64,000 bases of DNA from Rhizaria sp. SCN 62-66 (taxonomy: Eukaryota). The notes below the pieces were generated by a model. The model was not told the origin of the DNA and searched no databases. It saw only the letters and a list, made by a program, of their open reading frames with translations. The stretch is taken from positions 1-64,000 of the forward strand of contig MEDY01000224.1 in assembly GCA_001724265.1 (NCBI GenBank). Direction: 5' to 3'. Both the position numbers and the translations under genes were made by a program. Positions within the stretch are counted from its first letter, which is position 1. Every line of letters starts with the position of its first letter. Shown here one piece after another: positions 1,261 through 64,000 of this stretch.

Positions 1261-3080
1261 TCACTTATCAACCCCAAACTCCCCAAATACAAAGCCCTGA
1301 TCAGGAGCACTCTCCTGTTGTCCAAGCTTCACGTTATAGTTCTTGCTAGTGGTAGCGTTCGCAAACCCAGTCTCTTCATCGTACTTGACACCACTGATAC
1401 CTCCAGCAGCAGGTCCAGGAGACTTGACAATGTTTTTAGCTCCCTCGCCGCCAGCAGCGCCGCCGCCTGGCGCGCTCTCACCGGCGGCCGTCTCGTCGCC
1501 CTCGGCGTCGCCGTGGCCGTCTTCGTGCTCGCCGGCCTGGGCCGCGGAGTCGCCGTGCACGAGCTGCATGCCGCGCACGCGCAGCATGAGCCCCACGACG
1601 GCGACGGTCAGCGCGGCCGCGGCCTGCGCCCACACGGCGCCGCCGACGCGGAACACCACGCCCTCGGCGCCCTGCCGCTGCACGTATTCGCCCGCGGCGA
1701 CGCCCGCGGGGGCCGCGGCGGCCGCGGCGGCGTTAAGGGCTGCGATGACTGCCTCGGAGAGCGCCGCCGTGGCCGAGGCCGTGACGGTGGGGAAGAGCGT
1801 GAGGCCCGAGGCGGAGAGCCAGCGCGTCGCCATCGCCGTGCCCAACAGGCCCACGACTGCGCAGAGGTAGCAAAGGCGCTCGAGCCACAGCGACGCGTTC
1901 AGGTCGTACACGAGCTCGGTGAAAACCATGTACGTGGGCATCGCAGCTGTGGAGACACCGCCGTGGTGATGGGCACCGGCGCGCTGAGAGCGGGAGTTGG
2001 CGCTCTTGGTCAGACTGGCCGTGGCGTCATTAGACTCGTAGTCGTCGTTGTCCTCGTCGTTGTCATCGTCGTTCTAGACAGTCGCATTGCCGTTGCTGTG
2101 GCTGGCTGTCGTGCTACTAGAGCTAGAGCTCTTCAGAGACTTGGGAGCTTCAGGGAACACGTGGCGGCCTAACTTCTTGCCCAGTGAACTGAGACCGAGA
2201 CCGAGAATGATCCAACGACGCCACCCACCGGCAGCTTTGATCAAGTAGGCAACCCTGTTGAACGCAAACAAAGAAATAATACAATTATGGGTGAGAACAG
2301 ATTACAGCGTGAGAATATTGCAAATGACAAAATGTGCGCGACCATTTTGTCAACAAGATCGATTGTCAACAATTCTTGTACATGTACTCTGTTGCTTCGT
2401 ACCGAGTGTTGAAGCGCGAGCCGAGGAAGGCGACGAGCAGCACCGCCGCCAAGACCGTGATGACGGCAGCGACCGTGAGCGTGGTGCGGGCGCCAACCAG
2501 CCGGTCGCAATGCGCGCGGGGCGGTAGGATCTCCTTGTGGCTGAAGCGGCTGTACGACGAAATGGGCAGGCAGGTAGGATAGCACTCGCGAGGTAACTAG
2601 TGTACAGTGTAAAAGCGTTACGAATTAGAGCCAAAGTGAGACAAGAACAAGGTGATAAGCGAATACAAATAAAAGTGCGTCTGATAGTACAGATATTCGG
2701 AATCTCTCAATTGCACAAGAATGTTGGCGAGCAGTGTTACGTTTAAGTCAGTTCTCTGCGCGACGTACGAAGGACACAGTGGGCGAGATGGTGTAGCACG
2801 CCTCGGTCAGCCCCACAGTAAGCGTGTCGCCCTCGTAGAACTGGTTGCTCATCACGTGCAGCGGCGCGCGCGGCACGAACCACATCTTGGAGGCGCGGCC
2901 CGCGCTGGCGAGCACTGCCGAGGCGACGAGAAAGGCTAGACAAAGGAACAGCAGCAGCTCGGAGGGGATGTGGCGGCGGCTTGTCTTTGATCCAATCGAC
3001 AAGAGACGGGAGACAAAGAAGACGGCCGTGACGATGAGAAACGCTCCGTAGAGCAGGAACATAAAGAATGCGAACGTCAT
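1261..3080 (-). CDS. Multi-pass membrane protein with a claudin/PMP22-like Cys-containing loop; 3 exons (3080-2769, 2596-2403, 2254-1261), ~499 aa, in-frame TAG at 2074-2076
   Basis: Introns 2768-2597 (GTACGT..TAG) and 2402-2255 (GTACGA..CAG) join three segments in matching phase. Several hydrophobic helices and a W...GL..AC...C..C loop. The frame continues through NGNATV*NDDDNDED to TGA at 1261. Confidence 0.7.
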
Positions 3081-4291
3081 CCTGAAGTTTTCGTGAGGTT
3101 GGCGTGTGTGTTGCGGCAGTTGTTCTTTGCTTGTTATGGGTTACACAAGACAAGGCTCGATCGCAAGGGGCTATAGAGTGGCCAAGTGGTAGCTGTTGCG
3201 CCAACCTACTGGCTGATGTGGGTGACATGAGTATAGTGAAGGAGGAACAGGTATGGCCGTTGTAGTAGTAAGGGTGAGGATAAAGGGCAGTTGGCTTTGA
3301 CGATGTAGAATTCGAATATTTGAATCATTATTGAGGATGATTCGGGAAATAAAGCAAAATTCAGCATTATGCAACACAAAAACCAAGATTCTAGCTTGTT
3401 TCTACCATGGGTGTCAGATTAAGCTCATTAGGAGGTCCGAAGATATGAAGGATCGGATGACGAAGAAGGGAGAAGCGAGCTGGGATGCAGATATGTTCAC
3501 AGCAACACAGAGACCAAATCAAGGCGAACAAAATAAAAACCATTAACGAAATGCTGGATTGCATTCGATTTAGCTGCCGATATATGTTTTGACGCTCGGA
3601 GCATGCCAAGCCGTGTTTGCTTAAGAGCTGGTACGAAGCTGTCGCGCCATGTCGCTGAAGTCACAGTGTGCATTTGTGGCCAGATCACGTTCGACTGCGG
3701 ATGCATGTAGGGTGATAGTTTCTTAGCATAAAACAGAGAAGTATCACATAGTACTTGTTGTGACATTGCAAAATCTTGTTATTCTTTGCAGCGGATGTGC
3801 TGCTACTGCCAAAAACAACAACACGCGAGGGACTTTTGTGACCAATCAACTTACACGACGAAAACTTCACATCATAAACGTGGATATAACACGCATGACA
3901 AGTATCGACACTTATCCAGCATAGCTGCCGTAACAGTGCAGCTATTTTGTTAATATACTACTTTTCTACGGCATTGCACCCGGTCTCACTTGCATAACTA
4001 CTCGCAGACGTCTCGTGCACCCATGTTTCAAGTTGTGAACACAGAGTATTGTGATGCTTCAGAAGTAGGACCTTGCAAAACAAGAACAGCAAGACGCTAC
4101 TCCTCGTAGAGCTTTAATTAACAACATACAGGGAAACAGTTAGAAAGCAGATGTGCAGCTCATGTTGGCTCTCGTGATTACATGCTGCACATAAGCAACG
4201 CACGGAGTCGCTCAAACAATGTCATGTCTATGTATTGACTGTTTTGGCGAGATAAAGCCCAATCAATGCGAATATGTATCTTCAAAAATGA

Positions 4292-7200
4292 TTAAGGTTG
4301 GTCAAATTCGCCTTTTTTTGCGTTAAACCTGACTGTCTTTGCATTGATGTTTAGTCGTGCCATGACCTCCATCATCCCGACGTCTCCAATTGCACCATCC
4401 TCTTCGTTTTCAGCGGCGGCTGCCAGTTGTTGAATGCTCTCAATCACGTTTGGCGCAATGTCCATCAGCATAGCCTGCACAGCGGTCCGCCACTTTGTGC
4501 TTAGGATACTTAGATTGTCCGATGTACTGACATCGACGCCAGTACCAGATCGTGCGCGCGCTTTAGTGGTCGCGGCAGTCAACTCCAACGCCGCCGCAGT
4601 CGTTGTCGCTGCCAGGGCCCGCAGTGCGCTTGCGTCTACAGTCACGCCATTTCCAACTGACACACTCTTAATGGCTGCTGCAGCGGCAGCCGTTGGCATT
4701 GCGGCTCGGTGTGGCTGCTGGACGCTGTTTGTGTGAAATTGCTCGAGGTTGGCAGCAGCAGTCATTGCCATGATCTCATGCCAGTTGGGACTTGGATCTT
4801 CTCTCCAAGTGGCACTTGGACTGGATGAGTTAGTGTCACTAATTGCATGCTGCTGCTGCGGCTGTGGGCTGAGAGGCCAGTTTGCGTGATTAGGTGCAAC
4901 TCCGATGCTCCAGTTCAGAACAGTCCCTGTGTTGATGCTCGTCGGCGTGCGGCTTTCACTTGCGCCCGAGCTAGTATTGTTGCCGCTGCCTGTGTCGACA
5001 AAGCAAACACTATCGTTAAAATTTGCTGCCTCAGTTGATAGAGTGACATGGCGAAAACCGCCGTAGCTTGGACAAATACTTGTACTGCTGGTGTTTGCGC
5101 TAATATTTGTGTTGACGCCGCGAGCTGCGGTGACTTCACGTTTCAGTGACTTTGTAATTGCAGAAATGTTGCTTGGACCTGGGAATCCCCAAGTAATTGG
5201 AAGCACACAACTGACCTTCGAGGAATCAAAGTACCCATGCGTTTGGTCATAGTACCTGTGTTTACTGTCACTGCAAGAGACAATGACGGGGGCAACTAAG
5301 CTTTGTTGCTATAACACAGTTGCACTTGTGATTGCGCTTGCTCCTGCAGCTGCTCCGGCGGCAGTCGTTGACTGCGCAAGTGAAAGTGGAAGCAACGTCG
5401 CAGCAAGACAAGGACCGGTAGACGGCCATGTTGGTGTGATCACAGTGTTGCAGCTACGGCTTGCGCTAGCGTTACCAGCTCTGCTCATGGTTGAGCTGCT
5501 ATTAGATGTGCTGTTGCTACCCGGAGCTAACGATACGAGCACCCGCGACGCCAAGTCAGAACCTGGAGTAGACGAGCGAATGGACCCGCAATCTTGATAC
5601 ATCTGTGAATACTTTGTTGTGCCAACATGGAGCAAAACAGTCCTAACGGGGATACTAACACTGGTGAAGTCAAGTGGGCTCTCAACGCAGTCGCTGTTAC
5701 CCACCTCGCAGCTCTGGTCATTGACTAGAACAGCGCTCACAACTACTACTTCGTCGTCACATAGCGCGGCAGCAATCGCCTCCGAATTAGAATCACCTGT
5801 CGCCTCGTTTACGGCAACGCTTACACCGGTAGCTGCCAACGCCGCTTTTGTCCAGCTTGCAATCACCGCGCCCGACGCAGCTACAATCAGTGCCCACAGA
5901 GCTCCGACGCGCGCAACGGCGTCCGTGCAAAACTCTGCTGCAATAGCCGCTTCCATCTGCAGGCCGACGGCCCACTCACTCACATCATCGTTATCCTGGG
6001 TACTCATGCTCGGATGTGCCATCACACTGGCTTGATCTAAGTAAGGAAAGCTAGGGTCGATTGCGTCCAGGTCCAAGGCGGGCGGAAATGCAAGTACTAA
6101 ACTAACGCTACCATCAAGATTGATAGTCATGCGGATTGCGCCTGGCTCGGTGCAATTACTATCATCTGTTCGGCCAGCACTTGCACTTGTACTAGCGCTG
6201 CTGTTACGTGTATGTGTAACAAATGCTGTTGCTGCCAGCTCTGCGGCAGTGGCAGCAATCGCCGGAACAGTAAGCGGAGCGCAGCACGGCGCAAGTGCGA
6301 GCGCTGATGCTGCAAGCCGTGTGCCAATTTGCATTAATGGTGCCGGTAACGGCCACGGCAATAACACAGCAGGAGTTTGATTACTGCCACTTGCTGAGGC
6401 CGTGTGGTCGAGCAAATCCGTAATGTTGGCGGCAAGAGTCTCAAGCATGTAAGCATCCTGACTTGGGCTAAGTGTTAAAGTGTCACTATCCAGGTCGTAC
6501 TTTGGCAGCGCTCCAATCTCTGCGAGTAAACTCTCCGGTAGTAATGTTTCTGCAAACACGCTCGCAGGCACAATGACCTCGGCTGCGTGAGTTAAAATAG
6601 ATTTCTGCGCTGCCGCGGCAGCGTCACCTTCATAGTCACCGCCAGTCTCAGTTGTTGCGCTTGATGAATCCTTGGTTTTGGACTTCCCTTCCTTTGCCGC
6701 AGCCTTTGCCTGCTCCTTTTCAAGGCGCTTGCGCTCAGCTTTTTCGAGCGCTTTCGCTTCTTTCTCGGCAGCCTTTTCTGCCGCGCGCGCCTCGCGCTCA
6801 CTTGCCCTTGCTTCCTTCTCGGCCGCGCGCGCTGCTTTCTCCGCTGCACGCGCAGCCTTCTCACGCTCACGCTCTGCCGCTCGCTCGGCGGCAGCAGCCT
6901 TCTCAGCGGCCGTAAGCACCGGGGCTAATGCGGGGGCGCGGCTCGCGCTGGCAGCGGCAGAGTATCGGGCAGCTGACAATGCGCCGCCGCTGTTAAGCGC
7001 GCGCACACGCGCTGGACCAGCCTTGGCAGCTGCAGCGGCGCGGGCACGCGCACGGGCCGCGCCACCGGTAGCAAGGGCAATTGGCGCGGCACCAGAGCCT
7101 ACAGAAGGTAGTGGCTTGCGGCCAAAAAGGAGCTTGCGAGGGCCCTTTGTCGGTCCCATGTCGTTGTCGTAGTCGCTGCTGGTATTACTGCTGCTTTCGC

Positions 7201-9013
7201 CATCTTTGTCAGCGTCGGATGAAGATGATGTTGTCGACAAGAACGGGTTCTTGCCGTCTGCATCTCCGGCGTCGCCTGTATATGTATCATATCCATCGTC
7301 TGCAGTCACGCCTTTGGGTAGCGCGTGTGCGGAAACGCTGGGCCGCTCCCACGGGTCTCGTACACTAAGACTGCTGCTCGCGGCACTGACATGTACGGGG
7401 GTGACTTCGAGGCCAAGGTTAGACGCGAGGCTGTCAATAGTGAGTGTAGATAGGCCGGTTTTGAGACTAATGCTTCCAGAAAACTCCGCAGAAGAAGCAG
7501 ACGCGCTGGTGCAAGAGCTACTACTATTGGCGTCAGTTCTGTTGTTAGCAGCTTGTTTGCGTAAGGCTGAAGCCGTCACAAAGAGCTGCGCCGCTGACTT
7601 GGGCTAAGCGAACACGGCACGGCGGGCGCCCTCCTCCATTTCCTTAGCTTTCCTGATAGCTGCGCGGCTGAGCGCACTGCCACCAGCACTGCCAGCTTGG
7701 GGTAAGTCTGCCTTAGAGCGGTCGCCGGTCTGCTTATCCGTCGTGTCGGCGTCACTAACGCTCTTGAGACTCGAGCCAGACACAAATGCATCACGAGCAT
7801 TCGCGCTAGTGCTGCTGCTTGTGCTCCTGTTGCAAGTCTGTAACTAACCTGCAATTGCCTGCGATCCCGCAAGAGACTGTGGGTTTTGCTCCCACACCCA
7901 CACTTCGTCCCAGTGTCCCCACTTCACGTCATACTAATCTTCCTCCTCCTCCTCTTCCGACAGCGCTCTCGCATTTGTTGCCGTTTTTGCCGCGGACTTA
8001 GAAAGCGGTGCGCGCGGCTGCAAGAGAGAGCGTGGCACTTCAAGTAGTGTGCCGCGCGGCTTGCCGGCCGCGGTTGGGCTGGGGCGAGATGTGTCATTGG
8101 TGTTTGTGCTGGCGCCGTTCTGAATGCTCTGCGCGCTGCGTGGCAGTGGCTGTGACTGCATCTTGGTAGTCTTGACACCGCTGCTAGCATCAATGGTGGG
8201 CTTGCGGCGACCGCTGCTGGGTAGGCTAGAGCTCGCGCTCACATCCACGGAAAACGTTGGCACAATTGGTGTTGCTGCGGGGCCTAAAGCAGAAGTGACT
8301 GCGTCAGGAGCATGGACAACAGCCGACTTAGTGTTCACCTTGACTTTGATCTTGGCTGGAGCTGGTGTTGTGGCCGCGGTTAGAGCTGCAGTGATTTCTT
8401 GTGCTGCTGTTGCAGTCAGTGTTGCGACGGGACTGCTTTGGGTGGTGGTGCCAGTTGTCTCAGCTGCACTCGTACTAGCTTTAGAACGCGGCTTCACTTT
8501 GACTGAGACCTTCTTCTGGGAAGCTAACGAGGGCACAGTCGCAGTAATTGCGTTGATGTCATTGGCTGCGGTAACGTTAATAGAAACCGCCTCTGTTGAA
8601 AGGGCGCCCGTTGAGATATCAGTAGCTGAAGGCTTGGTCTCCGCTTTGCGCTTCACAACGACCTTCTTGACTGTAGGTTTGGTCCCAGTGACGTCAGGTG
8701 TCTCGGATGCTAGCGGCTCAACGGCAGTTGCTGTAGCCTTGAGTTCAATCACTGTCTTGTTAGCTGTGAGGTCCGGTGGAACTGTGCTAGGCGCAGTGTC
8801 GGTAGTAGGGATTGTGCTCGTCGCAGAGGTAGGAACAGGCGCCGCCTTCTTAATCTTCACCACAACCTTCTTAGCCGACGGACCAGCCGGCTTAGTGGGA
8901 GCTGTTTGCGTAGCCGTTGTAGCGTTGGGACGTCGAGCATTGTTGCTGGTGCTTGGAGTGTCTGCTGCAGAGAGCATTTGGTTGAAGGTGTTTTCGACGT
9001 CGTCATCGTCCAT
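4292..9013 (-). CDS. Hypothetical protein, ~1573 aa, single reading frame with four in-frame TAG codons (7934, 7844, 7604, 5309)
   Basis: Track ORFs 7934..9160, 5309..7579 and 4292..5206 are all in one frame. The gaps between them, read codon by codon, contain only TAG and no TAA/TGA. Likely ATG at 9013 (MDDDDVENTF); terminal TAA at 4292. T/P/A-rich N-terminus and an E/K/A/R charged helix. Confidence 0.75.
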
Positions 9014-9114
9014 CTCTCTGTTGTTGAGACGAAACAAACGTATACATGCGGTACGAGGAAGAATAACAAAACAACCGGGTTGAATTTGAGTTAAACATCC
9101 TGGTTTGACAATTG

Positions 9115-9156
9115 AACAACTTGAAGCGGTATTAAAACAACTTGAAGCGGTATTAA
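9115..9156. repeat. Perfect 21-bp tandem duplication (AACAACTTGAAGCGGTATTAA x2)
   Basis: Identical copies at 9115-9135 and 9136-9156. Confidence 0.95.
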
Positions 9157-11182
9157 TCATTGCGGTTTCTTTGATGAAGATATTGGTGGAGGCGATCTCA
9201 AATGACCGTGTTTTTCAGGAACCCATGCATGCATTTGCACTCTTCTTGGACAAGCTATAATGGTGTACATGCATAATCTTTTAAGTCAATGTATCGCGTA
9301 CAAGTTTGGTCGTGTCAATACTATTCCAGCACGGTTTTGGTGCATGGCCTTGCAACTCGCACATCTTCGCTGATAAGCTCCGCAATCTCAAACCTCGGTT
9401 TCGACTCAGGTCCCATTGCCAGCCTGGTCCGCCCGCCCATTACTGCCATCTCTTCCGATTCGAGCTTCACCATCCTAGCCTTCAAGTTCCCTCACGACGA
9501 TAAAGACAATATTTTTCCCTCTTTGGCAGCCCTTCCGACGTTCGTTCATGCAGCTGGCGGAGACTTTTCGGCAGCCTCTCGCCCTGACCGACAGCTCTTC
9601 GATGGCAGAAGACATGAAACATACGCCTTTCACGTTGCCTAATCTCGACATATCAGTATCTAAGAGCGCGGCACTTTTCAACGCGAGTCTCATCAACTCC
9701 AGCTGTAGCTGCAGGTTCGCCTGCACCTGCGACCACAGCAACATAAGCCAGCATCGTTTGTCCAGACGCTACTGCGCCTTCGCGCAGTGCAGCAGCGACA
9801 GCGCACTGACCGCGGCAGAGTCTTGGTGGCCCTGGGCACCCTCAGCGCAGCAACACCGAGGCCACTTACCAGTGTGGCAGCAGCGAGCTAGTGAGGACCC
9901 TTGCTCGCGCTTTCACCTCGCGTACACACTGTATAGACAATATCATTGTTCTTATTCAGGTCTTAACTTTTAAACCATGTGTATTATACATGTAGAAGCA
10001 AGTTATTTGTTTACAGTAAGTGACGGAATCGATCAGATTGTCTCGTACCACCGCCACTTTTGATCTCGCTAACACAGTCAATCGCACAGACATGTCCCTC
10101 GCAAACACTGCAAACTCACGAGCTAAGATACCTTGACTTGCTTGGTTGCATATTCTGTTTGATTAATTGGCGATGTCAACGCAAAAAAATAATATGGATA
10201 GACGTAGCAGAGACACACAAAACAAGGTAATTGTTGTTGCAGTAATGGTGTAGTAGTCGTTGTTAAAGCTGTTCACCGTCTCATGACAACACGGCGACCA
10301 TTGTAAAATATGCAGAAAATTGATTCAAAAACACAAGCACATACGCATATAGTAAGGCGAAACAATACGTCCTTTACAATATAACTACACGGCACAACAC
10401 ACCGTACACGTGTAAGAGTGTGCGTGATGTGGTATGTGTGAACATATTGTTCAGACTGTAGTGTGACACGGAATATGAGCAGCTGGCTATGAGTGCAAAA
10501 ACGAACAAGAAACAAAAACAAATTGAATTACTTGACTTAAAGTGGAATGAAACGACGAGCAGGAAAGAAAAACAGCAGGTCTGTTAAAACGTGTGCGTTT
10601 GCGTTGAGCACGGTAGCTAATTAGACTAGGCCTCGCCAGCAGCAAGACAAGGCTTCGAGAGCTAAGCTGAACACAGACAGAGAGAAAGACATGGAAGACA
10701 CAGACGCGGTTAACGCACACGATAGTACACGTGTTACAGCTCACCTCCACGGCCTTATCATCACTTGTCCACTTCAACGTATGGCTAAGAAAGCTTATGA
10801 GTGTGCAAGATGCCTTCTAAGACAACGCCGAGTGGAAGCACATAATTTGTGTGTAAATATACGTGCGAGTGCAAGTGTGATTGCAAGTAGTGTGTTTAAG
10901 GTTGCATGTAACAAAAGACAGAACAAAGGGAGGGGGGGAAAAATACAGTGCTGTTAAAGAGGAGCAGCACATGGCGCCAACAATACCACACAGGACCGCA
11001 TGTTGGTGCGTGTGTGGAGGTGTCGTTGCAGCGGTGCGCCGTACGAAGTGGGAGCAAAGATATGATGGGACGATGCAACAGCAACTGCGGCTCATATGAG
11101 TGAATCACTGCCGACCGAAGCAGGCAGTTCCGAGACTAGTCGTTGTTAAAATGCTGTGGTGGTGGTGTTGGCCGCTGCGTGC

Positions 11183-11844
11183 TTACGCAGCCTCCTCAGC
11201 CTTGGGGGCCTCCGCAGTCTCAGCCTCGGCCTTGGGCTCCTCAGCCTTAGGCTCCTCAGCCTTAGCCTCGGGCTCAGCCTCAGACTTGGCCTCAGGCTCC
11301 TCAGCCTTAGGCTCCTCAGCCTTAGGCTCCTCAGCCTTAGGCTCCTCAGCCTTAGGCTCCTCAGCCTTAGGCTCCTCAGCCTTNCCTCAGCCTTGGGCTC
11401 CTCAGCCTTGGGCTCCTCAGCCTTGGGCTCCTCAGCCTTGGGCTCCTCAGCCTTGGGCTCCTCAGCCTTGGGCTCCTCAGCCTTGGGCTCCTCGGCAGCA
11501 GCAGCGGCCTCAGCCTTGGGCTCCTCAGCCTTGGGCTCCTCGGCAGCAGCGGCCTCAGCCTTGGGCTCCTCAGCAGCAGCGACAGGGGCAGCCTCAGCAG
11601 CCTTCTCCTCTGCCTTCGCCTCAGGCTCGGCCTTGGCCTCAGCGGCCGCAGCGGGCGCGGCATCGGCCTCGGCCTTCTTGTTGTCGGCGTCTTCGATGGT
11701 GATGCAGACGGGGGACGTCTCGCCGGCCGCGGGCGACGCGGGCGCGTCGGTCGCGACGGCGGCAGGGGCGGCCTTAGCGGTCGGCGCAGAGGCAGGCTTG
11801 GCCTGGGCGTCGGCGGGCGTAGTTTGAGAATGAGTGCAACCCAT
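11183..11844 (-). CDS. Dual-acylated (MGCxxS) hydrophilic Ala/Glu/Pro/Lys-rich repeat protein; contains an assembly gap
   Basis: ATG at 11844 gives MGCTHSQ (Gly2 myristoylation plus Cys3 palmitoylation pattern). EEPKA repeats lie on both sides of the N at 11384. TAA at 11183 is in the repeat frame. Confidence 0.8.
11295..11493 (-). repeat. 15-nt coding minisatellite (EEPKA), at least ~13 units, interrupted by N at 11384
   Basis: On the + strand the unit is GGCTCCTCAGCCTTA left of the N and GGCTCCTCAGCCTTG right of it. Confidence 0.95.
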
Positions 11845-12584
11845 GAGGTGAAAGCTAGAGGCGAAGAAACATGGATGGTGATGTAGGAGAGCGTGAGAGA
11901 AAAGGGGAAGCAAGGTGGCACGCGACGACCAGCAAGAAAAACATTGCAGCGGAAATCAGTCAGTGCGGAGTCCTTCTTAGTGCATTTCAAATAGCACACA
12001 AATGACTAAATTATTGGAAGTATCTTACAGTTCAAATATACCCCCAAATCACCACGCTTTGTAGCAACATGGCTCATACAAAGCTGCGGGGCGTTTCATT
12101 TTCGAGAAGGGGTTGAGCGCTCACGGTCACTTGCCTCCCCCAGTCAAATCACTTCTAAGAGCCGATAGTGCCAACATGAGTAATGACTTAAAATGTATTT
12201 CTATCATTATGTGTAATCGTTTTCTTAATGTATCATATTATTGCTATGAAGCGATTGACGGATGTTCTGACTACTTTGCTATCACATGAGTGTCGCCGAC
12301 GATGACTTGTGGTCTCCTTTCTTCCACATTGCCCGCCATCTACGCATTACATAGTAACTCATATGCTTGGCAACGAACAATTATACGCAATCACATGTTT
12401 GAGTGTATCTACTTCAACAGCCTTTGTTTTGCTGGCGCCCGGAAATCCCTCACAATTAGGCCTTTGCTCGCCCTGCCACACCATCCTCTCCGTCTGTCTG
12501 CGCTCTTTTAACACCTCGTATCCTCCGACAACACACTTGCTCTGGCAACATCACCCGGTCCCGGTACAGAGCTCGCGTTGTTTT

Positions 12585-13955
12585 ATGGGACAGACGTGCT
12601 CTGGTGACAATCGTCATCGTCTCCCGGCCTCTGGTTACGGTTTTCGCTACCGCCATGGTCCGTCACACTCATGCACAACACTAATGCAAACTTCTTTTTT
12701 TATGGTAGTCCACGCATATGTTCACTGTTGCTTGCAAATGCCACGTATAATCTCACCAAGAGAATTTTAACACGAACCATGTGTTTTCGTCTGGGATAAC
12801 AACATTTCTCGCTCACTAAAACTTTTGCATGACCGCTCGCCACTAAACCCCACTCATATCTCCTGCCACAACAACGCTCGCACACACAGACCCGGTGCAC
12901 GCGCGCCGCTTCCAGCTCTGCTTTGCGACGCCCCCGCAGTACCAGACGGGTCTTATTGTGCCCCTCTTCGGCGAGTACGAGGACGTCGCCGCGCTCTGGG
13001 ACGCCGCCGCCGCGGCCGCCGCGCTCGGCATCTCAGTGTTGTGTCTCATGCGGCCCTCAATCGACGACACGCCGCGACCCGCTGAGTCGCTGTCCCCGGG
13101 CTACACGACCGCGCTGGCCAAGCTCGTCGCCGCGGGCGCGCGCTGTCTCGGCTATGTGGAGACGGGTGAGTGCTCTAAGTCCGCCTGGCTCATCGACAAC
13201 GAGATCCGGGCCTTTGCAACCTGGGGCAGCGCCGGCTCCGCCACGGGGCTGTGCGGGATGTTCTTCGACCACACGGCGCAGGACGCGTCGGCCTACTCGG
13301 TCGCGTACTGCCGCCGCGCCGCGCAGACGACCCGCGAGGAGGTCGGACCCCTGGTCATCCTCAACCCCATGTGCGTACCGTTATCGCTCGAGTACAAGAA
13401 GTGGGCTAACGTCGTCGTCACCTTCGAGGACGTCTACAGCGCGTTCCGCCCGCGCGCCGGCGACGTACCCGCCAACCGCGTGTACACACGCCGCAAGGAC
13501 GGCAGCTCGGACGACCCCGCGCACCCGCCCGATGAGACCAAGGGCGTGGCGCACTACAGTGAGGGCGCGACGGCGACGGACAAGGTCGCCTCCGACGTGC
13601 AGATGGCGGCGCGCGCGATGAAGCAGTACGTCGCCGTGATCGACGATGACGACGACGTCTCTGGCAGCGCGAGCGAATGGGAGCACGACGACTCGCTGGC
13701 GCCCGAGGCCGCGGCGCCGTATGTCGCCAACTTGCACCGCGCCGAGCATGAAGTGGACCCCGAGGTGGCGGCGACGGTGATGGCCGCCGTGGAGGCCGTG
13801 CGCGACGACGACGACCGGTCCATGCCGGCGCCCGCGGAGGGACACGACGAGGTTGCGCAGGGCGCCGCTGCGGACGCGCTAGTGCCGGTGCCGCAGCTGG
13901 CGTGCATTGTGCTCGCGATGGCGCAGGGTGTTACCAACACCACAGTCTCGACGAC

Positions 13956-13987
<32 letters not shown>

Positions 13988-14577
13988 CTGAGGAGGAAGA
14001 GGAAGAAGACGGCGCCCTCGCGAGCGCCGGCGCCGCGCTGCGCAAGGCCGAATCCGTGACGACCAAGACCGACTCCGCCGTGTCGGCGTTCGAGGCGCGC
14101 GCGGGCGCCCGCATCCAGCGCCGCACGCGCCGCGCGCTGCGGTGGGCCAAACAGCGCGGCTTTGGCTGGGTCTTTGCCGTCCCGGGCAACTTCAGCGCCG
14201 GGACGACGGTCGGCACAGTGGCTGCGACCGGAGACCACCCGTACGAGTTCTCTCAAGACTGCTGGGACGCGATGATTGCAGAGATCACCGGCAGTCCCAG
14301 CAACAGCTCCGCCGGTGCCGCGAAGAGTGGGAACATGAGAGCTGTTGGCGTTGGCGCGGGCGCGGGTGCCAAGGGCAAGTCTGTGACGACTACGACGACA
14401 ACGACCACGAACAGTACTTCGAGCTCTAGCTCTAGCTCTAGTATCAGCGCTGGTGCTGCGGGCGCAAACGCGAACGCAAGCGAGGTTGTGATGTCGCCGC
14501 CTGTGTTTGTGGCCAAGGACGAGACTGATGGCGCGGCTGCGCCTGAGGAGAAGACCGAAACGGCAGCCGCGGCGTGA
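12585..14577 (+). CDS. Spherulin-4 / GH135 (Sph3-like) family protein with low-complexity insertions; exons 12585-12657 and 12890-14577, ~586 aa
   Basis: Motifs LIVPLF, LGYVETG, GMFFD, VILNP, VVVTFE and C-terminal AKQRGFGWVF...HPY.....W resemble Spherulin4. Intron 12658-12889 (GTCCGT..CAG, CACTAA branch-like) joins an MGQTCS first exon in phase. Confidence 0.75.
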
Positions 14578-14911
14578 ACAATTAGTACGCGTGCACACGG
14601 GTGGGAATGTAACAAGTGTTAGTGTGACTCTTGCTCTACTTAGTCGCTTAAACAGGCCGTATTAGAGGGCCAGTGTTGTAAACCTTGCCTCATCAAAGCA
14701 ATATACAGTAAATAGCGTTTTGTATCCGAAACTAACATCTTTGTCGTACGTGCTGTTGATAAATTGTATTCAAGTAGAACGAAGCACGCTCAGAACGTGC
14801 TGTTTCAGCTCCGAAACTCATTATAGCCAATGATGGCAGTATTTTGTACATTAATAAGTGAACACTCAAGTCAAACTCAAACTGTATGTCCATTCCTGCT
14901 GCTTTACCTGG

Positions 14912-15372
14912 TTAGATAGTGATGCCGTAGGTTGCAAAGAGGGCCACGACTTGGGGAACAGTGAGGCTTGAGATCTCCTTGCGGTCGCAAACGTCACCTG
15001 TCTCATCGTCAAAGTGGATAAAAACGCCCTATAGCAAGTGACATATACACAAGAGGTAAGAATCAAAACAACGGTGAGTTTGCGATGACAGTATGGTCAC
15101 GAAGCCGAGAATGGTAGCAAAGAGGAAGTGCCACGTGGTATATGAATTTCACGTACAGGGCACATAACACCGCCGGACTCCTGAATCACGCCACGCGCAA
15201 CGGCGTCTTCAATGTAGGACTTAAGAGCAGTGTTACCCTTAAAGCCAGTACCAACCTGGAAATAGAGAACAGTAAGTAGATTCGGAGGTGAGAACGAAGG
15301 CGAACTGGGTGGAAGGAACGAACAGAAGAAGCAAAGATATAGACGTACCCGCAGAGTCGCTACGACAGGCAT
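14912..15372 (-). CDS. Small 79-aa protein, probable thioredoxin-like fold (Sep15/SelM-like or L51/S25/CI-B8-like); exons 15372-15349, 15255-15157, 15028-14912
   Basis: Two GTACGT..AG introns give MPVVATLRVGTGFKGNTALKSYIEDAVARGVIQESGGVMCPGVFIHFDDETGDVCDRKEISSLTVPQVVALFATYGITI followed by TAA. Exon lengths 24/99/117 are all phase 0. The fold call is by eye only. Confidence 0.7.
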
Positions 15373-15611
15373 TATTTGATACCTATAAAAACACGCGTTA
15401 TATTTTGAGTGCGAGTTAACCGTTCTTTTAACGATGAGATTATGGAACAAAATACAGCCAAACTTCTTTTACGACCTGACTCCAAGGCGGGTCGCTGTCA
15501 CCACAAACTCTATTTTGAGTCAAGTCAAGATTTGTATTCTGGTAATTTTCAAGTTAATTCTAGCGCTGTTATACGCTGTATTTCTTATCAACATATTGTA
15601 CTCACTTGTTT

Positions 15612-18600
15612 TTACATCCACTGCGCGTTCAAAACGGCGCCGACTTCATCAAAGTCGTCGTTTTCGCCGTCTTCTTGCGAGTCGCCGCTGTTGTTCAACA
15701 TGCTCTGCTCGAACATAGGCGTCTGCGCTCCGAGCTGCACTTCGTACGTCGTGCGAGACAAAGTCTCAGTCGCTGCAGTCGCATTAACAGCTGCGTCGCC
15801 AATCTGATAGTGGGGAGAATTTTCAGATAACTCTGAACGTGCAGAGCCGTTATTGCTCGCGTTGATATTGTTGTTGTTGACTGAGAGGGACCTGAAGTAT
15901 TCCTCGCGCTCGGCAGCGAACTGCTGATGCATGCTTTGCTGACGGTTATCGCCGTCTTCAAGTTCGTCGTCATCCTCGTCGTGATGCTCACTTCCTTCGT
16001 TGTCTTCGTCTTCATATAATCCGTCGCCTTCATCATTGTTGTTCACATCACCGTCTTCGTCTTCGTCTTCGTCGTCATAATCTTCATCCACGACTTCCAG
16101 TCCAGCATCAGCGAACGTGGCGGCAGCGACTCGTGCCGCAGCCGCCTCGCGGCGCCGCTCTTGCATGAAAAACTCCGCGATCGCAGCAACAGCCGCCGCA
16201 TCCTCCTCGTCGATATCAACCGGCTCAGCAGCCTCCACCTCGTCCGCCACAGCCGCAGTCGCTGACTCAGACGCAGTCGCGACAGCAGCAACGCCAGAGT
16301 CTCTCGTGGGCGCTGGACTATGAGATACCGTGGCAGCTGCGGTCTCGACCGCAGTCTGTAAGTTCGCGACTTGCGCCTGCAGTGACTGCACTAGGCTCTC
16401 ATAAGCGCCCAGGCGGGCCTCGACAATCGCGCCAGCCAGCTCGCGGTCACTCTCGCCGGAAGCACTACTTGCGCTCTGACTGGCATTGCGAGAGCCCGCC
16501 CCGGGAAACGCGCTCTGCAGCGCCGCAGTAACAGCCGCAGCGGTCGCCGCGTCGGCGTCCGCGCTCGCCTGCGCCGCCTCGGAGCGCACGCGTGCCGAGT
16601 TGACCGCCGACGGCGGCGGCGGAGCCTCGCCCAACGCCTGCTGATACATGCTGTGCGCGACGGCGAGCAGCCCCGACGGCAGCGGCACCAACGCGCCGGC
16701 CTCGAGCCTCTCCGCGTCGGCCGCGAGCGCCGCCAGCCGCGCGCGCGCCGCGCAGACCGTGTCCATGGCCTTGCTGGCGAGCGCGCGCACGCGGGGGTCC
16801 GCCCACTGCACGCCCCACTGCGTGCGCGCCCACCCCGCGGCCGGCGCGCGGGCCGGCGGCGCGGCGTCGACCGTGGTGGCATCGGCGAGCCCCACGCCAG
16901 CGAGCGAGCGGTGCGCGACGTGGCTGCGCATGCGCGTGTCGGCGGCCGCGCCCGTCAGCTGCTGCACGGCCGCGGTCGCGGCGGCGGGGGAATCGGCGAC
17001 GACGGCAGCGATGGCGGCGTCGGGACCAGCGGCGTTGGTGGTGGTTGTGGTCGTCGTTGTCGTTGAGCCGTCATCACGCTTCTGCTGTTGCTGTGGCTCC
17101 GAGGAAGGGTAGCCAGCCGCGCGCTCTGTCGCCGCAGTAGCAGCGGACTCTGCAGCGGCTGCAGCGGCGCGATCACCCTCAGCAAGTGCGTCCAGCGCGG
17201 CGACAAAGCGTGCCACGGCCTCGACTTGCCACAGGCGCTGCAGCGGCGGCAAAGGCACGCTGCCCGTGGGCCGTGACCCGCCGTGGAGACTGAGATCCAA
17301 CTGCATCGAGTTAGAGTGCGCGCCAATGTGAGCGTTCGAGTTACTGGAAGATTGCGGTGTCGAAACGGTGGAGAGCAGAGGCAGAAGCTCCGCAGCAAGA
17401 GCGTCATGGCGCGCAGTCGATGCGTGGTCACCAGCGGCCGCAGCGGCTGCGCGTTCCTTGGCCAAATCGGCCATCAACGAGAGGCCATACAGCACAACAT
17501 CATTCTGATCGCCGCTATCCGCGCCGTCAGGAGTCGCGCTGGCGGTATGAGAGCGCGTGTTGCTGCTGTAAGAGTTAGACCCGCGGAAGAGCGAGCGCAT
17601 GTCGTTCATGATACGCCTCGCGCGCGCGGCACGGCCGGCGGCGTCGCGCGCCGACTCCGGCGGCTCGTCAGCGCCAAGCGTGGCCACGGTCACACCGCCG
17701 ACAGTCACCGCACCCATCGTCGCCGCGGTGGCGTTGGACAACGGCGCCGAGGCCGCACCGGGCCCTTGCACGCGCACGTGGTGGCGCAGTGCACGCAGAC
17801 GGCCGCGCAACACGTCGACAGCGCTGCACTGCGCGTGGAGCAGAGAGATAAAGAAGTTGATGCCGGCGGCAGACGCAGCGGCGGCGACTGCGGCGGCAAT
17901 GCCCGCAACGCGCGCGTCCGCAGCGGCCTCGGCGGCCCAGCCGTCGCCGGAGGAGCCCGAGTGGGTGATGACAGTGAGCGCGTGCGGCAGCGGCACCGGC
18001 GGCGCACGCGTGCGCGGCGGGGGCACGAGTCCCGTCCTCGCGCCGTTGACGTAGCGGATGTGGACTGTATCAGTGCCGGCACCTTGGTCAAGGTCGCCGA
18101 CGAACGTCCACGTCAAAGGGCCGTGCTCGGCCTCGTACGCGGCGAGCTTGCGCTGCACGAGCTGCATCTGCGACCGCGTCGCTGTGAGACGCAGAGAGGC
18201 CTCGGTGAGCTTGGCGCTGGACGCAGCGCCCGCCTCGCCTGCGGCCCGAGCCTCGGCGCGCGCGGCTTCGAGCGCGGTCTCCAGCGCCGCGATCGACTGC
18301 TTATGCTCAGCGAGGACCTCGGTCTGGCGCGCGACTGTCTTCTTGTACTGCGCAAGAGAAACGCGAAGCTTAGTCGCGGCCTCCTCCTGTGCAGCCGCGG
18401 CCTCGCAGCGCTGGGCCTGAGCTTCAACACGCGCCTTCATGCCGCGCAGGGCGGCGCCTTTGCGCGCGAGCTCCTCGTGTGCAGCTGCGAGATCGCGCTG
18501 TGCGTTCGCCAAAGCGTCCCCGCCTTCGCCATTGTTCGCACTCGCAGAAGATGCGTTGGGCTTGCCATCGGCATTCGCGGGGGCGTCGACGGTGGCAGCG

Positions 18601-42915: not shown

Positions 42916-42971
<56 letters not shown>

Positions 42972-51446: not shown

Positions 51447-51481
<35 letters not shown>

Positions 51482-52012: not shown

Positions 52013-52514
52013 TGGATACCTCGGGTTCTTAACACAAGCAAAGACCTCTTTTTCGTCTTGCCTGGTCGTCTCTCTGGCTGGGGCACAGCCTTGCTCCTGG
52101 CGGCTTACCTTCCTATTTTTGAGAACCATTCCACCTCCATCCCTTATTTGCACTTTAAACACGCCTAAGTCTTTTTCACAAGCAAAATAAAAAATACAGA
52201 TTTTTTAATAAAGCTAAATCCGTCAAACTATTACGTTCATATGTATGATACTGTTGGCATTGTACATTAAATCGACGAGAATCCAGTGCGGGAGCATGCA
52301 AGATTCTACGTTGGAAACAACTGTTACCATTAAAGCGCCCTCTATGAGCGCATACATAGTGTATTAATACGTTTTGTTTACAATATATCATACGTTTACT
52401 ATCATACAGAAAAACAAAAATCCTGTTTCACGCGCAGAAGACAAGACACCCTCCTTCCAAGCATCACTCAATCACGGTCACAACCTGTCACAGTCTTCTC
52501 GCTGACATGTCGGT

Positions 52515-57950: not shown

Positions 57951-58217
57951 ATGCCTAGTGTCGCCACCCGCCGTCGCCGCTTCGACGCTGCCCAAGAGCG
58001 CAACGCTGACGAAGAGCGCGGCTTCGCTGCCGCCACGTCGTCCTCTTCCTCGGCGACCCTGATGCCGTCCCGCAACGGCGCGTCTCCCTACGCGCTGAAC
58101 CGCCCCACCGCGGAGGGCGAGAAGATGAACCCGCTGCTGCGGCTGCTGGTCAATTTCCCCGGCATCCCCATCCTCGCGCTCGTCTTCGCAATCTACTACT
58201 TCGTCTTCCGCAAGTGA
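57951..58217 (+). CDS. Small tail-anchored membrane protein, 88 aa
   Basis: ATG in an A-rich context, GC-rich codons, C-terminal hydrophobic helix IPILALVFAIYYFVF followed by RK and TGA. Confidence 0.7.
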   Translation: MPSVATRRRRFDAAQERNADEERGFAAATSSSSSATLMPSRNGASPYALNRPTAEGEKMNPLLRLLVNFPGIPILALVFAIYYFVFRK

Positions 58218-58768: not shown

Positions 58769-60376
58769 TCAATCGCTGCTAGTGCTAGCATCGATGCTGG
58801 TGCCAGTGTTGGTGTCAGCGCTCGCGCTCGGGGTCGTCCTGTCGGCAGAAATGGACTTTGACTCCTCAACCTTGACCTTCGCACCGGCATCATCAGCGTT
58901 CTCGCCGCGAGAGACAGCCTCGGCCCTGTGGAATGCAATACAATCAGAAGTCACAAGAGTAAGCGCAGATGTTGTGAGCACAAAGAAACAGTAAAATCAC
59001 TCGACACCGTTCCAAATACATACAAATCATAGTTAAACATTGCAAGATACATCGCACACGCAACGGGAGACCCATGCTGGCACACCCAACGTACCGCGCG
59101 ATACCGCTCTGGTCCGTGACGCCGCGCAGCAGCTGCTCGAGACCGGTCTCGTACGACTCCGGGCTCCTGTCCCGGCGGCGGGCCACCGCGCGCGGCGACG
59201 CCGAGGCCGTGGCGGGCAGACGCACCGCGGAGCCGGGGGTCGCGGGCGCGCCGCCGGACGCCAGCAGCGCCGCCGCGCGCGCGGCGGAGTGCGGGGGAGT
59301 CATGGCCACGGACGCCGCGGCGCTCGCAGCCTTGGTGGGGGTTGCTGAAGTAGATGTCGTGGATGTCACTGCTGCTGTTGATGTTGCTGTAGTTGACGGA
59401 GACTTCGCCACGGCGGTCGCGGTGTTGGCGCCGCGGACGGGGGTGGACGGGGCAGAGCGCTTGGCCGCCGCGCTCGAGCCCGCGCTGGCACCAGAAGGAA
59501 GCGCGCTGGCGTTGAGAGTGTTGTTGGTGGGGGTGCGAGACGGCGAGCGGGAGACACTTGCTCTCGCGCTCGAGCCGTCATCTGTCGTAGCAGCGGCGGC
59601 GGCGGAAGCAGCAGCAGCTCTACGGCTGGGAGAGCGCGAGCGCGACCGTGAGCGGGAACGGGTGCGAGAGCTGGAGCCAGAAGCACCCGCAGCAGCTGCG
59701 GGATGGGCATTGCGAGTGGCATCTGCGCTTGCACTGCTGCTGCTAGACTCAGTAGCGTCAAGAGTTGGAACAGCGGGGGGCGAAAACATCGGCGGGCGCG
59801 TCGACGGCCCCGCGCGCGCCGAGCTTCCAGTGCCAGCAGCGCTAGCGGCGCCGCTGCTGCTGTTCATAGGCGAGGCGAAGGTGGAAGGGGTTTTGGCAGG
59901 GCGCACGGGAGAATGCTGCAAGCGGTCGTACATGCGCTCCAAGATGTTGCCGCCGGGTGCCATGGCGCAGCCAGGGCGGCGCAGAGGGGACGCTGGAACG
60001 GGACGGGCATTTGGACGCAGCGGGGACTTCATGGGCACCTTCATCGGCGAAGATAACAGCTGCGTGGGGGGAATGTGACGCACCATTGGGTGCGCAGCGC
60101 TGGAGCGGGGACACAGGAACAGAGAGCAAAACGGGCATGAAACAGAGTCAAAAATTAGCCCATAGTAAAACAGTTGCGCTATTATGTCATATCAAGTTGC
60201 TGCAGCTAAGGACAAAGATCTGAAAGGTGAGGAGCGTACCGAGTGTCACTGTTGGGATCGGTGGAGGCGGTCTCTGAATTGGGGGGAGCAAGATAGTCGA
60301 CGGGGGCATACCCCGCGCCGGCGACGCGACGGCGCTTCGACTCTTGTTCAATCGAGTTTGCGTCACGATCGGACAT
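58769..60376 (-). CDS. Ser/Thr-Pro-rich disordered, probably nuclear protein; exons 60376-60240, 60099-59095, 58925-58769, ~432 aa
   Basis: Introns 60239-60100 (GTACGC..CAG) and 59094-58926 (GTACGT..CAG) are both phase 2 and join three track ORFs. KRRR NLS-like motif, RS dipeptide run, many SP/TP sites. TGA stop. Confidence 0.75.
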
Positions 60377-60711
60377 TTTGTCTGTGCGCAATTTTAACAA
60401 CTGTGCCCATCGCATATCGTGTCCAAAGTTGGCCTACCATCGGGCGCCAAACGGACAAGGCGGCCAGCTCCTGGTTTTTCGGAACAACTCACAAACGACG
60501 TAGCCCAACTTTCACGGTCAAATAACCCTCGCTATCAATCGTCAAGTGCTTATCGGGTCAATTTATAACGCATTAATGTGAGTTAAAGATGCTATAATTT
60601 CATTACTTGCTGCTTTGAAAGCAGTCTACCGCGTGCAAACCACATTCTTCTTACCCATCTATTTCGGGCCTCGCAATCCTCTCTTGCTTTCACATACAAT
60701 TACAGGCTGCG

Positions 60712-61680: not shown

Positions 61681-63032
61681 GCGCAGAGAACGCGGAAACA
61701 CAAAGCAGAAGGGCGCTTGAGTGACCTCTGCATGTGACTTTGACTTGAGCTGGCCTGTCCAGTTTGCAGAGCCGAAAGCCAATTATTTGCTCAAGCTTAA
61801 TACAATATTACATTCAGTAAATTTTTTATGAAATATACGTGTGGTCATTTTCTTTATTTAAATTCTGTATTTTTAAATGACTATGATGTTTTTTAAATTG
61901 AATCGAGAGTGTTTAAAAACTGCATCCGGTCAAGAGTACAAGTGATTGGAGGTACGAATAGGTTTTAAAATGATATATTACCATGAGAAAAAAGATGTCA
62001 AAATCTATTGATATTATATGGATTAAAACAAGGAATGTACATACACAAAACACGTCACGTCTCATAATCAACATCTGTACGATCTATTCATCTCCTTCAC
62101 ACAGAGCAGCTCTCTTCCCTGACTGTTACCGCGATGATGCAGCGCGTGGCATAAGCTCGTAGGGCGTCGATGTTGCCGAAATTATTGCGTGTCGCTTTAC
62201 CTCACCTCTTGGACTGTGCTCCGCCACAAGCAAACTCCCTCCTCAACGTTAACGTTGCCAAGGTGCAGGGTGAGACTTTCAGCCAAGGTAACACCGTCTC
62301 CAACGCAGGTACGAGCTACGGTCTCTCTGTATCTCGCCTGCCACTCGTGGCGTCTTTGCACCTTGCCACACCATCCAAGCTCAGTTTACCATTGTCCCAG
62401 AAACAATCTCCCCGTATTCTGCCAATGGGAGCTGCGTCGTCCTTGGGTGTCATCACTCGCGCATTTGCCACGGCGGCGCGGGCAGTGATCGACTCTCGGT
62501 CCGTTTGTGGCTGCTGCTAGGTTCTCGGTTAAAGTGGCTGTTGACGAGGTAAATCTCAAAATGAACGTATTGACAACTGCGAGGGAGCGGTCCCTCCTTC
62601 TTGATATTCCGGCGGCTGAGTTCGACAAATTTAGATGATAGTTACGTCTGTACGTAGTACGTATGAGGCATTGATGCAGAAGAAGTACTATATTTCATGA
62701 GAAAGCAAGCTGAAAATCGGTGGTAAACGTCAAATTAGAGGTCATGATTGAATGAATAACATTCGTTCTATTGTGGATTATGTTGAACAACTTATAATCA
62801 ATTTCGCATCAACTGCAAATGCAGACAGTTTGATACGTACGACGTATTAGTCCGGAAAATTGTGGAATGGGACAGTCAAACAAATTAGAACAATACACTT
62901 GAAGAGAAGCAAATACGAAAGCTTAACAACACGTCAAATATCGAACAGAATAAGTAACAAACAGCAGCAACTAAAACACTTCTTGTATCAGTGTAAGTCC
63001 GCTGTACACAGTAAACAGCAGTCCTTTATAAC

Positions 63033-64000
63033 TTACTCGAAGTCGTCGAACGAGATGTCGAGGTCGAACGGGTCGTCATCGTCATCGTCCTGAGCAATGA
63101 TAGCCGCGGGAGCAGCAGCAGCAGCGCCGCCGGCCTTCCGGGGGGCAGGCTCGGGAATGCGCTGCACAGACTCGAACTTGTCGTCATCGTCGTCGTCATC
63201 AACGTCGTCGTCGTTGTTCTCATTGTCGGTGTCGTTGATGGACTGGCTGAGGTCCACGTCGCTGCTCGCAGGACTGGGCTCCAAACTGCTCGGCTCCACA
63301 GCCTCCGCCCCCGCGCCCGCGCCACGGAGGTTCGCAGGCGCCAGCGACGGAGTGCTGACCGTGAGAAGCGACGGCGTGCTCGCGCCGCCAGCGCCGCGGG
63401 CGTTGTTGCTGGGGGTTGCCTTGGCCGAGCTGGCAGCGCTGGCCTTGCCCTTGGCGGCCGCGGCGGGCAGCGGCGTGGGTGCGACGACAACGTCCTCATC
63501 GCCGCCATAGTCCGCAAGCTCAGGCGCAGCAGCAGCAGCAACAGGAGTGGCGTGATTGTACGCAGGCGGCGAGCCCGAGCCCTTGGGCTGGGACGGCTGC
63601 GCGCGGGGCGTCTGGTGCGGCGTGCGCTGCGGCGGTGGCGGCATGTTGCTGTGCAGCGTCGGCGCGAACACCGACTCGCGACGGTTCGCCGCGTCGTTGT
63701 CGTCCTTGTCATCGGCCTCAGCGCCAGCGTCGTTGCCCTTGGCATTGGCTCTGTGCGCGGCGAGCTCGGCCTGGGCGTCCGCCTGCGCCTGCGCCCGCGC
63801 GCGCGCACGGCGCGCCTCGGCGGCGTCGGCGGCCTCCTGGCCAACCGCCGCGAGCGCGGCCGCCGCGTCACCGCCGCTGCCGCCGTCTTCCTCGGCAATC
63901 GGCGCGGGCACGCCGCGCGGGCGGGAGCTCGCGGGTGCCAGGCGACGGCGGCTCGCGCTGCCGGGCGGGGACCCGCCAGCGGCGTTCTCGCTCTCGTTGG
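63033..64000 (-). CDS. 3' part of a hypothetical low-complexity protein with an acidic C-terminus; 5' end outside the window
   Basis: Frame open toward the window edge. Ends DDDDDDPFDLDISFDDFE then TAA. Confidence 0.75.
   Translation of the reverse strand, partial: NESENAAGGSPPGSASRRRLAPASSRPRGVPAPIAEEDGGSGGDAAAALAAVGQEAADAAEARRARARAQAQADAQAELAAHRANAKGNDAGAEADDKDDNDAANRRESVFAPTLHSNMPPPPQRTPHQTPRAQPSQPKGSGSPPAYNHATPVAAAAAPELADYGGDEDVVVAPTPLPAAAAKGKASAASSAKATPSNNARGAGGASTPSLLTVSTPSLAPANLRGAGAGAEAVEPSSLEPSPASSDVDLSQSINDTDNENNDDDVDDDDDDDKFESVQRIPEPAPRKAGGAAAAAPAAIIAQDDDDDDPFDLDISFDDFE

Follow-up and report, generated by a model that had tools for sequence, protein, structure and literature searches.

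In-frame TAG codons in two long genes of a GC-rich protist contig suggest that UAG is a sense codon while UAA and UGA remain stops

We analyzed a stretch of 64,000 nucleotides (hereafter, the window), comprising positions 1 to 64,000 of contig MEDY01000224.1 in assembly GCA_001724265.1, which is deposited under the name Rhizaria sp. SCN 62-66. An original prediction, made from the letters of this DNA, had proposed that UAG is a sense codon in this organism whereas UAA and UGA remain stops, based on six TAG codons placed within three genes. All six TAGs were recovered, on the predicted strands and with the predicted peptide contexts. The claim that three genes carry in-frame TAGs held for two long open reading frames (ORFs), denoted here as g4292 and g40198, but not for the TAG at 2074, which may be non-coding. 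The features in question are as follows.

4292-9160, minus strand: g4292, an ORF of 1622 codons with four in-frame TAGs, ending in TAA at 4292-4294
7934-7936, minus strand: TAG no. 1, codon 409 of g4292, in the context EEEEEED-TAG-YDV; GAG (Glu) in another population
7844-7846, minus strand: TAG no. 2, codon 439 of g4292, in the context AIAG-TAG-LQT
7604-7606, minus strand: TAG no. 3, codon 519 of g4292, in the context AVFA-TAG-PKS
5309-5311, minus strand: TAG no. 4, codon 1284 of g4292, in the context ATVL-TAG-QQS, followed by 338 sense codons before TAA
40198-47490, plus strand: g40198, an Ala-rich ORF of 2430 codons with one in-frame TAG, ending in TAA at 47488-47490
45481-45483, plus strand: TAG of g40198 (codon 1762), in the context LAAL-TAG-HAT, followed by 668 sense codons before TAA
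2074-2076, minus strand: TAG in the frame of the gene at 1261-1941 (minus strand), 44 codons upstream of its first ATG

Reading frames of the TAG-containing genes

The reading frame of g4292 (4295-9160, minus strand) contains four TAGs and neither TAA nor TGA among its 1622 codons, whereas the other five frames carry 16-83 TAA and TGA codons. Likewise, the frame of g40198 (40198-47487, plus strand) contains one TAG and no TAA or TGA among 2430 codons, with 18-54 TAA and TGA codons in its other frames. The next in-frame TAA or TGA after the five TAGs lies at a distance of 339, 669, 1104, 1184, and 1214 codons; after 17 true stops the corresponding distance is 6-131 codons, with a median of 26. 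In-frame TAA or TGA was absent from all 11 tabulated ORFs. TAG as a sense codon accounts for 5 of ~15,300 codons, or about 1 per 3000.

Codon usage in g4292 is unbiased, with a GC content at third codon positions (GC3) of 0.51 as compared to 0.72-0.90 in other long genes, and the gene as a whole is 55% GC. It scores as non-coding with a codon model trained on the other genes, though its frame is clearly maintained. Codons that are rare in the other genes are enriched 3-9 fold in g4292, including TTA (19 of 1622 codons vs. 20 of 13,693 elsewhere) and, over the same numbers of codons, AAA (24 vs. 22) and CTA (14 vs. 26). TAG exhibits the same pattern as these other disfavored codons, with four occurrences in g4292 and one elsewhere, and its distribution matches the behavior expected of a rare sense codon.

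Residues 423-1622 of g4292 were compared to 1.84 billion representative proteins and yielded three matches, two of which were fragments of g4292 itself. The third (P0125) is a 118-aa protein from another organism that has its last 113 residues in common with g4292 (47% identity, E 1e-18) and terminates at the same C-terminal end, which is the only gene end in the window with homology support. Since P0125 shares both these residues and the end, the region downstream of all four g4292 TAGs appears, at the level of sequence, to be conserved as protein. Three entries (P0123, P0124, and P0126) are public-collection fragments of the TAG-containing genes that were split by standard-code gene calling; P0123, a database ORF from a strain variant that differs by one residue, stops exactly before the codon of TAG no. 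4.

Neither the g4292 nor the g40198 protein was assigned to a Pfam family. No relatives of g40198 were identified among proteins of 1336-4253 aa, and among shorter proteins only its own fragment was recovered. By eye, the g40198 protein gives a PPR/TPR-like impression, with recurring motifs resembling helical repeats on both sides of the TAG, in which Pfam found nothing.

The sixth TAG, at 2074, possibly belongs to the 5' untranslated region of the gene at 1261-1941 (minus strand), because the frame is devoid of ATG from the preceding stop up to this TAG. It may thus lie outside of the coding sequence, and it was not counted as evidence. A candidate upstream exon, comprising GTACGT at 2768 and an acceptor near 2257, was rejected since these fail to join the frames. 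The base that follows this TAG is A, whereas the other five are followed by a pyrimidine.

Gene ends and independent assemblies

The original prediction had listed 16 gene ends in the window, all of which carry the TAA or TGA ascribed to them and can be tied to plausible genes. Together with a further end (TGA at 32534), these comprise 9 TAA, 8 TGA, and no TAG, such that TAA and TGA are used about equally as terminators. Among them, the end at 11183 belongs to an EEPKA-repeat protein in which an N at 11384 disrupts the frame, the end at 58217 closes an 88-aa ORF, and the end at 58769 requires a GTACGT donor at 59094, with the unspliced ORF stopping at TGA 58944. The census is partly circular, however, because 4292 and 47490 are TAA ends only if the TAGs are read through. 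Among the 15 ends that are independent of the code, none is TAG, and the genes that they close are also devoid of in-frame TAG. The probability of about 1% that had been attached to 0 of 16 TAG ends is therefore a weaker argument than claimed: for 0 of 15 it is ~1.3% if TAG has a 25% share of stops, and a sample of this size is too small to exclude a low share of TAG as terminator.

A distant relative of the window's organism provides a comparison. Its Vac14 is 49% identical to that of the window, and 21.8 kb of the 115-kb contig that encodes it (L004) were examined.

L004, 9722-12340, 18341-19876, and 19941-21461: ORFs with TAG shortly before the next TAA or TGA

In these three of seven long ORFs, TAG is positioned 4-8 codons before the next TAA or TGA, and no ORF has an internal TAG. 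Among the three is a release-factor-like gene, its family recognized by eye, whose C-terminus ends at the TAG. Because three of seven ORFs end in this way, including one at a release-factor-like C-terminus, the relative appears to terminate at TAG. The difference in TAG ends between the window (0 of 15) and L004 (3 of 7) has a Fisher p of ~0.02. In terms of gene order, L004 has only Vac14 in common with the window.

Contigs from four other runs (X3, X4, X5, and X14) were compared to the window over positions 1-20000, a stretch that does not extend to TAG 45481. X3 and X5 come from other studies, X5 being a cDNA library. X4 and X14, the latter a polyA metatranscriptome, belong to a single study. 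Base differences were taken from those listed, and depths pertain to individual contigs and cannot rank expression. The strain in X4 is ~99.4% identical to the window. An X5 contig (7596-8227) carries TAG nos. 1-3 with a single difference, at 8050, and with TAG no. 3 only 8 bases from its end. In X3, the window's letter is found at 7936 (TAG no. 1 is kept) and a perfect contig covers 2074. At position 7936, A is replaced by C in X4 (one contig, depth 6.65 of 6.65) and in X14 (one polyA-RNA contig), which on the minus strand converts TAG no. 1 to GAG (Glu), while X3 and X5 retain TAG. The presence of the same TAGs in assemblies from other studies shows that these are not sequencing errors.

Across TAG nos. 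1 and 2, an X14 polyA-RNA contig (7737-8083) runs colinear with the DNA, without gaps, and thus no splicing is apparent at these sites. Taken together, RNA-library contigs cover TAG nos. 1-3 and are colinear with the DNA, with TAG no. 4 and TAG 45481 lying outside of RNA-contig coverage. The X5 and X14 contigs fall mostly over genes, and the lack of coverage of stretches such as 2669-4669 carries no evidential weight. GC-rich repeats of Ala codons (GCC/GCG) at ~1711-1732, 13002-13022, and 19304-19330 attract dozens of unrelated metagenome contigs, and generate many false joints and loose ends in X3.

Collectively, these observations make it very likely that the five in-frame TAGs are translated. 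They also suggest, with less assurance, that UAG is probably a sense codon genome-wide and that UAA and UGA are the only stops. The original prediction thus stands as the best explanation of the window and of the independent assemblies, although it is carried by five codons in two genes only. Under this reading, a decoder tRNA with the anticodon CUA, or an equivalent, would insert an amino acid at UAG, eRF1 would recognize UAG poorly, and this decoding would apply throughout the genome. UAG would then be a rare sense codon that, like other disfavored codons, resides chiefly in a gene whose codon usage is unbiased.

Several points weigh against UAG as a genome-wide sense codon. The five codons that carry the case reside in two orphan genes of low complexity, and no homolog aligns at any TAG site, so that conserved positions yield no residue for UAG. 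TAG is absent from Vac14, the desaturase, and the Spherulin4-like gene, which are the conserved genes of the window, and the window contains no tRNA gene. The match of g4292 to P0125 could instead reflect a separate small protein. With respect to the census, the probability of 0 of 15 TAG ends rises to ~20% if TAG makes up 10% of stops, and a census under the standard code has 2 TAGs among 17 ends, which is unremarkable (probability of two or fewer ~0.16 at a 25% share). The base after each of the five TAGs is C or T, as compared to 4 of 17 true stops and a background of 0.30-0.36 for first codon bases; such a bias toward a pyrimidine at position +4 would result from selection against residual termination, with eRF1 still competing at UAG, and UAG may therefore be partly a stop. 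Finally, the RNA evidence consists of contigs rather than reads, such that DNA carry-over is possible, and the contig comparison has 52 further rows of differences beyond those listed.

Alternative explanations and the nature of the window

The main rival is that UAG is still a stop but is efficiently read through in weak contexts by a suppressor or near-cognate tRNA, serving as sense within some genes and perhaps ending others elsewhere in the genome, as in an ambiguous intermediate stage. We regard this as less likely, yet it accounts for a number of the observations. The pyrimidine at +4 in 5 of 5 TAGs has a p of ~0.003 (Fisher ~0.005), in a post hoc test on small numbers, and a purine occupies +4 in 13 of 17 true stops. 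The base before TAG is A or T in all five cases, so that the local context is always (A/T)-TAG-(C/T); the rare Leu codons TTA and CTA are found immediately 5' of two of the TAGs. The rarity of TAG is likewise consistent with leaky termination, and a census of 15 genes leaves room for occasional termination at TAG. Against this, none of the 15 independent ends uses TAG, and an ambiguous code of the Condylostoma or Blastocrithidia type, in which the same codon also ends genes, thus finds no example among them, albeit in a small sample. Programmed read-through, whether viral or at leaky cellular UAGs, usually involves one stop per gene and often a downstream structure. The window resembles such systems in the pyrimidine that comes after UAG, as in TAG-CAA at 5309, but differs in that a single gene has four TAGs and in that no consistent structure follows them: the 100 nt downstream have no shared or unusually stable fold (z-scores of -1.95, -0.77, +0.24, -1.22, and -1.88).

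A second alternative is that each TAG ends a separate gene, with the downstream sequence made up of neighboring genes or chance frames, or that the contig is non-nuclear (e.g., from a giant virus). This we consider very improbable. GC-rich DNA does give rise to spurious frames that are free of TAA and TGA, reaching 1158 codons antisense to a 5618-codon gene, but g4292 has a GC content of just 55%, and stops abound in its remaining frames. Moreover, five consecutive genes in the same frame without any stop in the spacers are not credible. Splitting g40198 under the standard code, into a 1761-aa gene that ends at the TAG and a 516-aa gene that starts at ATG 45940, was rejected because the intervening stretch scores as coding. 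Over the 152 codons between TAG 45481 and that ATG, which is the next one, the same frame has a codon log-likelihood 10.9-30.9 above that of the other frames, with GC3 at 0.62-0.96; the real intergenic spacers of the window receive strongly negative scores. A non-nuclear origin is consistent with the lack of a known family for most window proteins, but is opposed by a full-length Vac14, GT-AG introns, contigs from polyA libraries, and AT-richer spacers of 0.4-2 kb. No viral hallmark was detected in Pfam searches of the window proteins, and a dedicated search for giant-virus genes was not made.

The TAG-containing genes might also be broken under the standard code, as pseudogenes or nonsense alleles whose downstream frame is residual. 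In line with this, g4292 has atypical, unbiased codon usage and a non-coding score, its first TAG reads GAG in one population, and 7 of the 12 listed X4 differences within it alter the protein (the other five being synonymous), although these are too few to show selection. Such decay would, however, be hard to reconcile with the absence of any TAA, TGA, or frameshift across the 1214 codons that follow TAG no. 1, given that the off-frame stop density predicts at least 8 stops over the final 338 codons alone. The same triplet accounts for all five interruptions, the TAGs persist across runs of several studies dated 2015-2025, the C-terminus of g4292 is conserved, and a second, GC3-rich gene (g40198) shows the same picture. 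Gene decay is thus a highly improbable explanation.

Removal of the TAGs by splicing or by RNA editing before translation is similarly hard to credit. The organism does have spliceosomal introns with GTACGT donors, and TAG 7844 is located within AG|GTTAGT...ACAG, but the candidate intron around it was rejected as too short, at only 11 nt as compared to 93 and 128 nt for the observed introns. None of the other four TAG sites adjoins a donor-like motif. The X14 and X5 contigs described above run through TAG nos. 1-3 without gaps, although partial editing could go unseen in contigs. Lastly, an assembly or sequencing artifact, to which the one N in a collapsed tandem repeat of the window might point, can be effectively set aside, as X3 and X5 contigs from other studies have the same letters at the TAG sites and independent contigs from X4 (3037-4689 and 7806-11323) and X3 (8454-9909) bridge g4292 to its neighbors.

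The window ranges from 52 to 72% in GC content and comprises long ORFs on both strands separated by the AT-richer spacers, which score as non-coding with the codon model. Pfam searches identified a full-length Vac14, a fatty-acid desaturase, a Spherulin4-like protein, and a leucine-rich repeat (LRR) protein; matches to MSP and NUDIX domains were weak and below the cut-off, and the majority of window proteins were without a known family. ARAGORN detected no tRNA genes in the window, and Rfam yielded no matches; the window does not encode eRF1 either. Two genes are of note here.

35564-37966, plus strand: Vac14 homolog ending in TGA and with no TAG; Pfam Vac14_Fig4_bd 6e-55, Vac14_Fab1_bd 8e-42
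14912-15372, minus strand: small gene of three exons ending in TAA 14912, with its joints in one X5 contig (depth 28.4)

The Vac14 gene was used as a marker of organism type and as an anchor to retrieve related loci. A protein atlas confirmed its identity without providing useful taxonomy. Its best relatives are two proteins with 62% and 56% identity, and named relatives at ~40-45% identity are from oomycetes, Tribonema, streptophytes, and Colponema, the latter being a transcript attributed to Colponema vietnamica in a preprint (10.1101/2022.09.26.509509). Nothing here places the organism within the Rhizaria, and it shows no sign of metamonad affinity. A query with the Vac14 protein returned no match in a first scan of metagenome contigs, in genome contigs, or in viral contigs. 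A second scan of metagenome contigs with an alignment as query recovered 80 Vac14-related loci, among which the window's organism was represented by a single 3.7-kb contig (L001) that lies inside the window. DNA of the window was detected in 13 runs from 7 studies of bioreactor and wastewater metagenomes.

In the three-exon gene, introns at 15029-15156 (128 nt) and 15256-15348 (93 nt) on the minus strand, as defined by joints in the cDNA-library contig, are both of the form GTACGT...AG, and their removal by script yields one open frame of 79 codons from ATG to TAA. Because the X5 cDNA contig skips both intervals, the organism has spliceosomal introns. The third GTACGT donor, at 59094 (minus strand), probably opens an intron in the gene at 58944-60086 (minus strand), whose last exon would then end at TGA 58769. 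Collectively, the window is best explained as nuclear-type DNA of an uncultured, GC-rich, intron-poor protist from wastewater or bioreactors.

Other features of the window include an orphan giant protein encoded by the 5618-codon ORF at 15612-32468 (minus strand), which is 70% GC and has no in-frame stops of any type; no Pfam family was identified in the 4999 residues of it that were tested. The gene at 11183-11900 (minus strand) starts with MGCTHSQ, consists mostly of EEPKA tandem repeats, and has its TAA end at 11183. The sole N of the window, at 11384, falls inside this repeat and breaks the frame, and it looks like an assembly collapse.

The assigned residue and comparison with known codes

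The original prediction favored Gln as the residue inserted at UAG, a preference that proved to be without support. No homolog covers any TAG site and nothing was found that favors Gln over Glu; the sole direct hint is the TAG/GAG polymorphism at 7934-7936. As it occurs in an acidic run, this polymorphism hints weakly at Glu, or at a Glu-like residue such as Gln, with others being possible. Glu would fit if the polymorphism is synonymous.

UAG and UAA nearly always change meaning together. A split between them is documented for a handful of lineages, including exLh, Iotanema, and some ciliates (PMC5304391, PMC11687900). The two precedents from the original prediction that were checked, UAG = Leu in a sainouroid rhizarian and UAG = Gln in Iotanema, both hold according to the account in PMC5304391, although its list omitted the phyllopharyngean ciliates (PMC11687900). 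For exLh (Sainouroidea; Panek et al., 2017), that account gives UAG = Leu, with 384 in-frame UAGs in 71 transcripts and gene ends comprising 56 UAA, 15 UGA, and no UAG, and it notes L69A in the eRF1 of exLh (PMC5304391). On this description, exLh and the organism studied here are both non-ciliate protists in which only UAG is sense and gene ends lack UAG (here, 9 TAA and 8 TGA), but UAG in exLh is frequent and aligned to conserved Leu, whereas here it is rare and confined to orphan genes. In Iotanema spirale (Fornicata), UAG = Gln was deduced from hyperconserved positions and likelihood tests (PMC5304391). As described there, the change similarly affects UAG only, with UAA and UGA kept as stops; unlike Iotanema, the organism studied here is GC-rich and non-metamonad in appearance, and the polymorphism is with GAG rather than CAG.

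Among phyllopharyngean ciliates, UAG is reported as Leu in one lineage and as Gln in two (McGowan et al., 2024, PMC11687900), the genomes being partly metagenome-derived and suppressor tRNA(CUA) genes being described for some (PMC11687900). These ciliates, as portrayed in that report, share the reassignment of UAG only, but UAA is their preferred stop whereas TAA and TGA are used about equally here. Should TAG and GAG be synonymous at the polymorphic site, UAG = Glu would liken the window to two further systems, the ciliate Oligohymenophorea sp. PL0344 and Blastocrithidia nonstop. For PL0344, the study of this ciliate reportedly arrived at a Lys/Glu assignment. In PL0344, UAA and UAG are described as encoding different residues (PMC10553269), and in Blastocrithidia nonstop UAR is given as Glu (PMC12153298). 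Unlike in these systems, where UAA is reassigned or has a dual role, TAA ends 9 of 17 genes here and never occurs in frame.

A full-text literature search found no UAG-only case in a GC-rich, non-ciliate wastewater protist, which does not prove that none is in print. We conclude that the window probably represents a further case of UAG-only reassignment, distinguished by a very low frequency of UAG and by its context bias. More tentatively, and with considerable doubt, it might reflect an early UAG-only reassignment in a previously unsampled non-ciliate lineage, in which UAG has been abandoned as a stop and is still rare as a sense codon, possibly for Glu. At such an early stage, UAG would occur only in genes with weak codon bias and only where the context makes for poor termination (a pyrimidine at +4). 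The change would be recent and datable, because a relative in the same Vac14 clade appears still to terminate at UAG.

At a practical level, standard-code gene calling already fragments these genes in public protein collections. If the assignment to Glu were true, it would be one that is unreported for codes that keep both UAA and UGA as stops. A further independent split of UAA and UAG, in a GC-rich wastewater protist, would provide one more instance from which to study the origin of such splits. Moreover, the low frequency of UAG and its context bias may offer a view of an intermediate stage, one that codon-capture and ambiguous-intermediate models describe differently.

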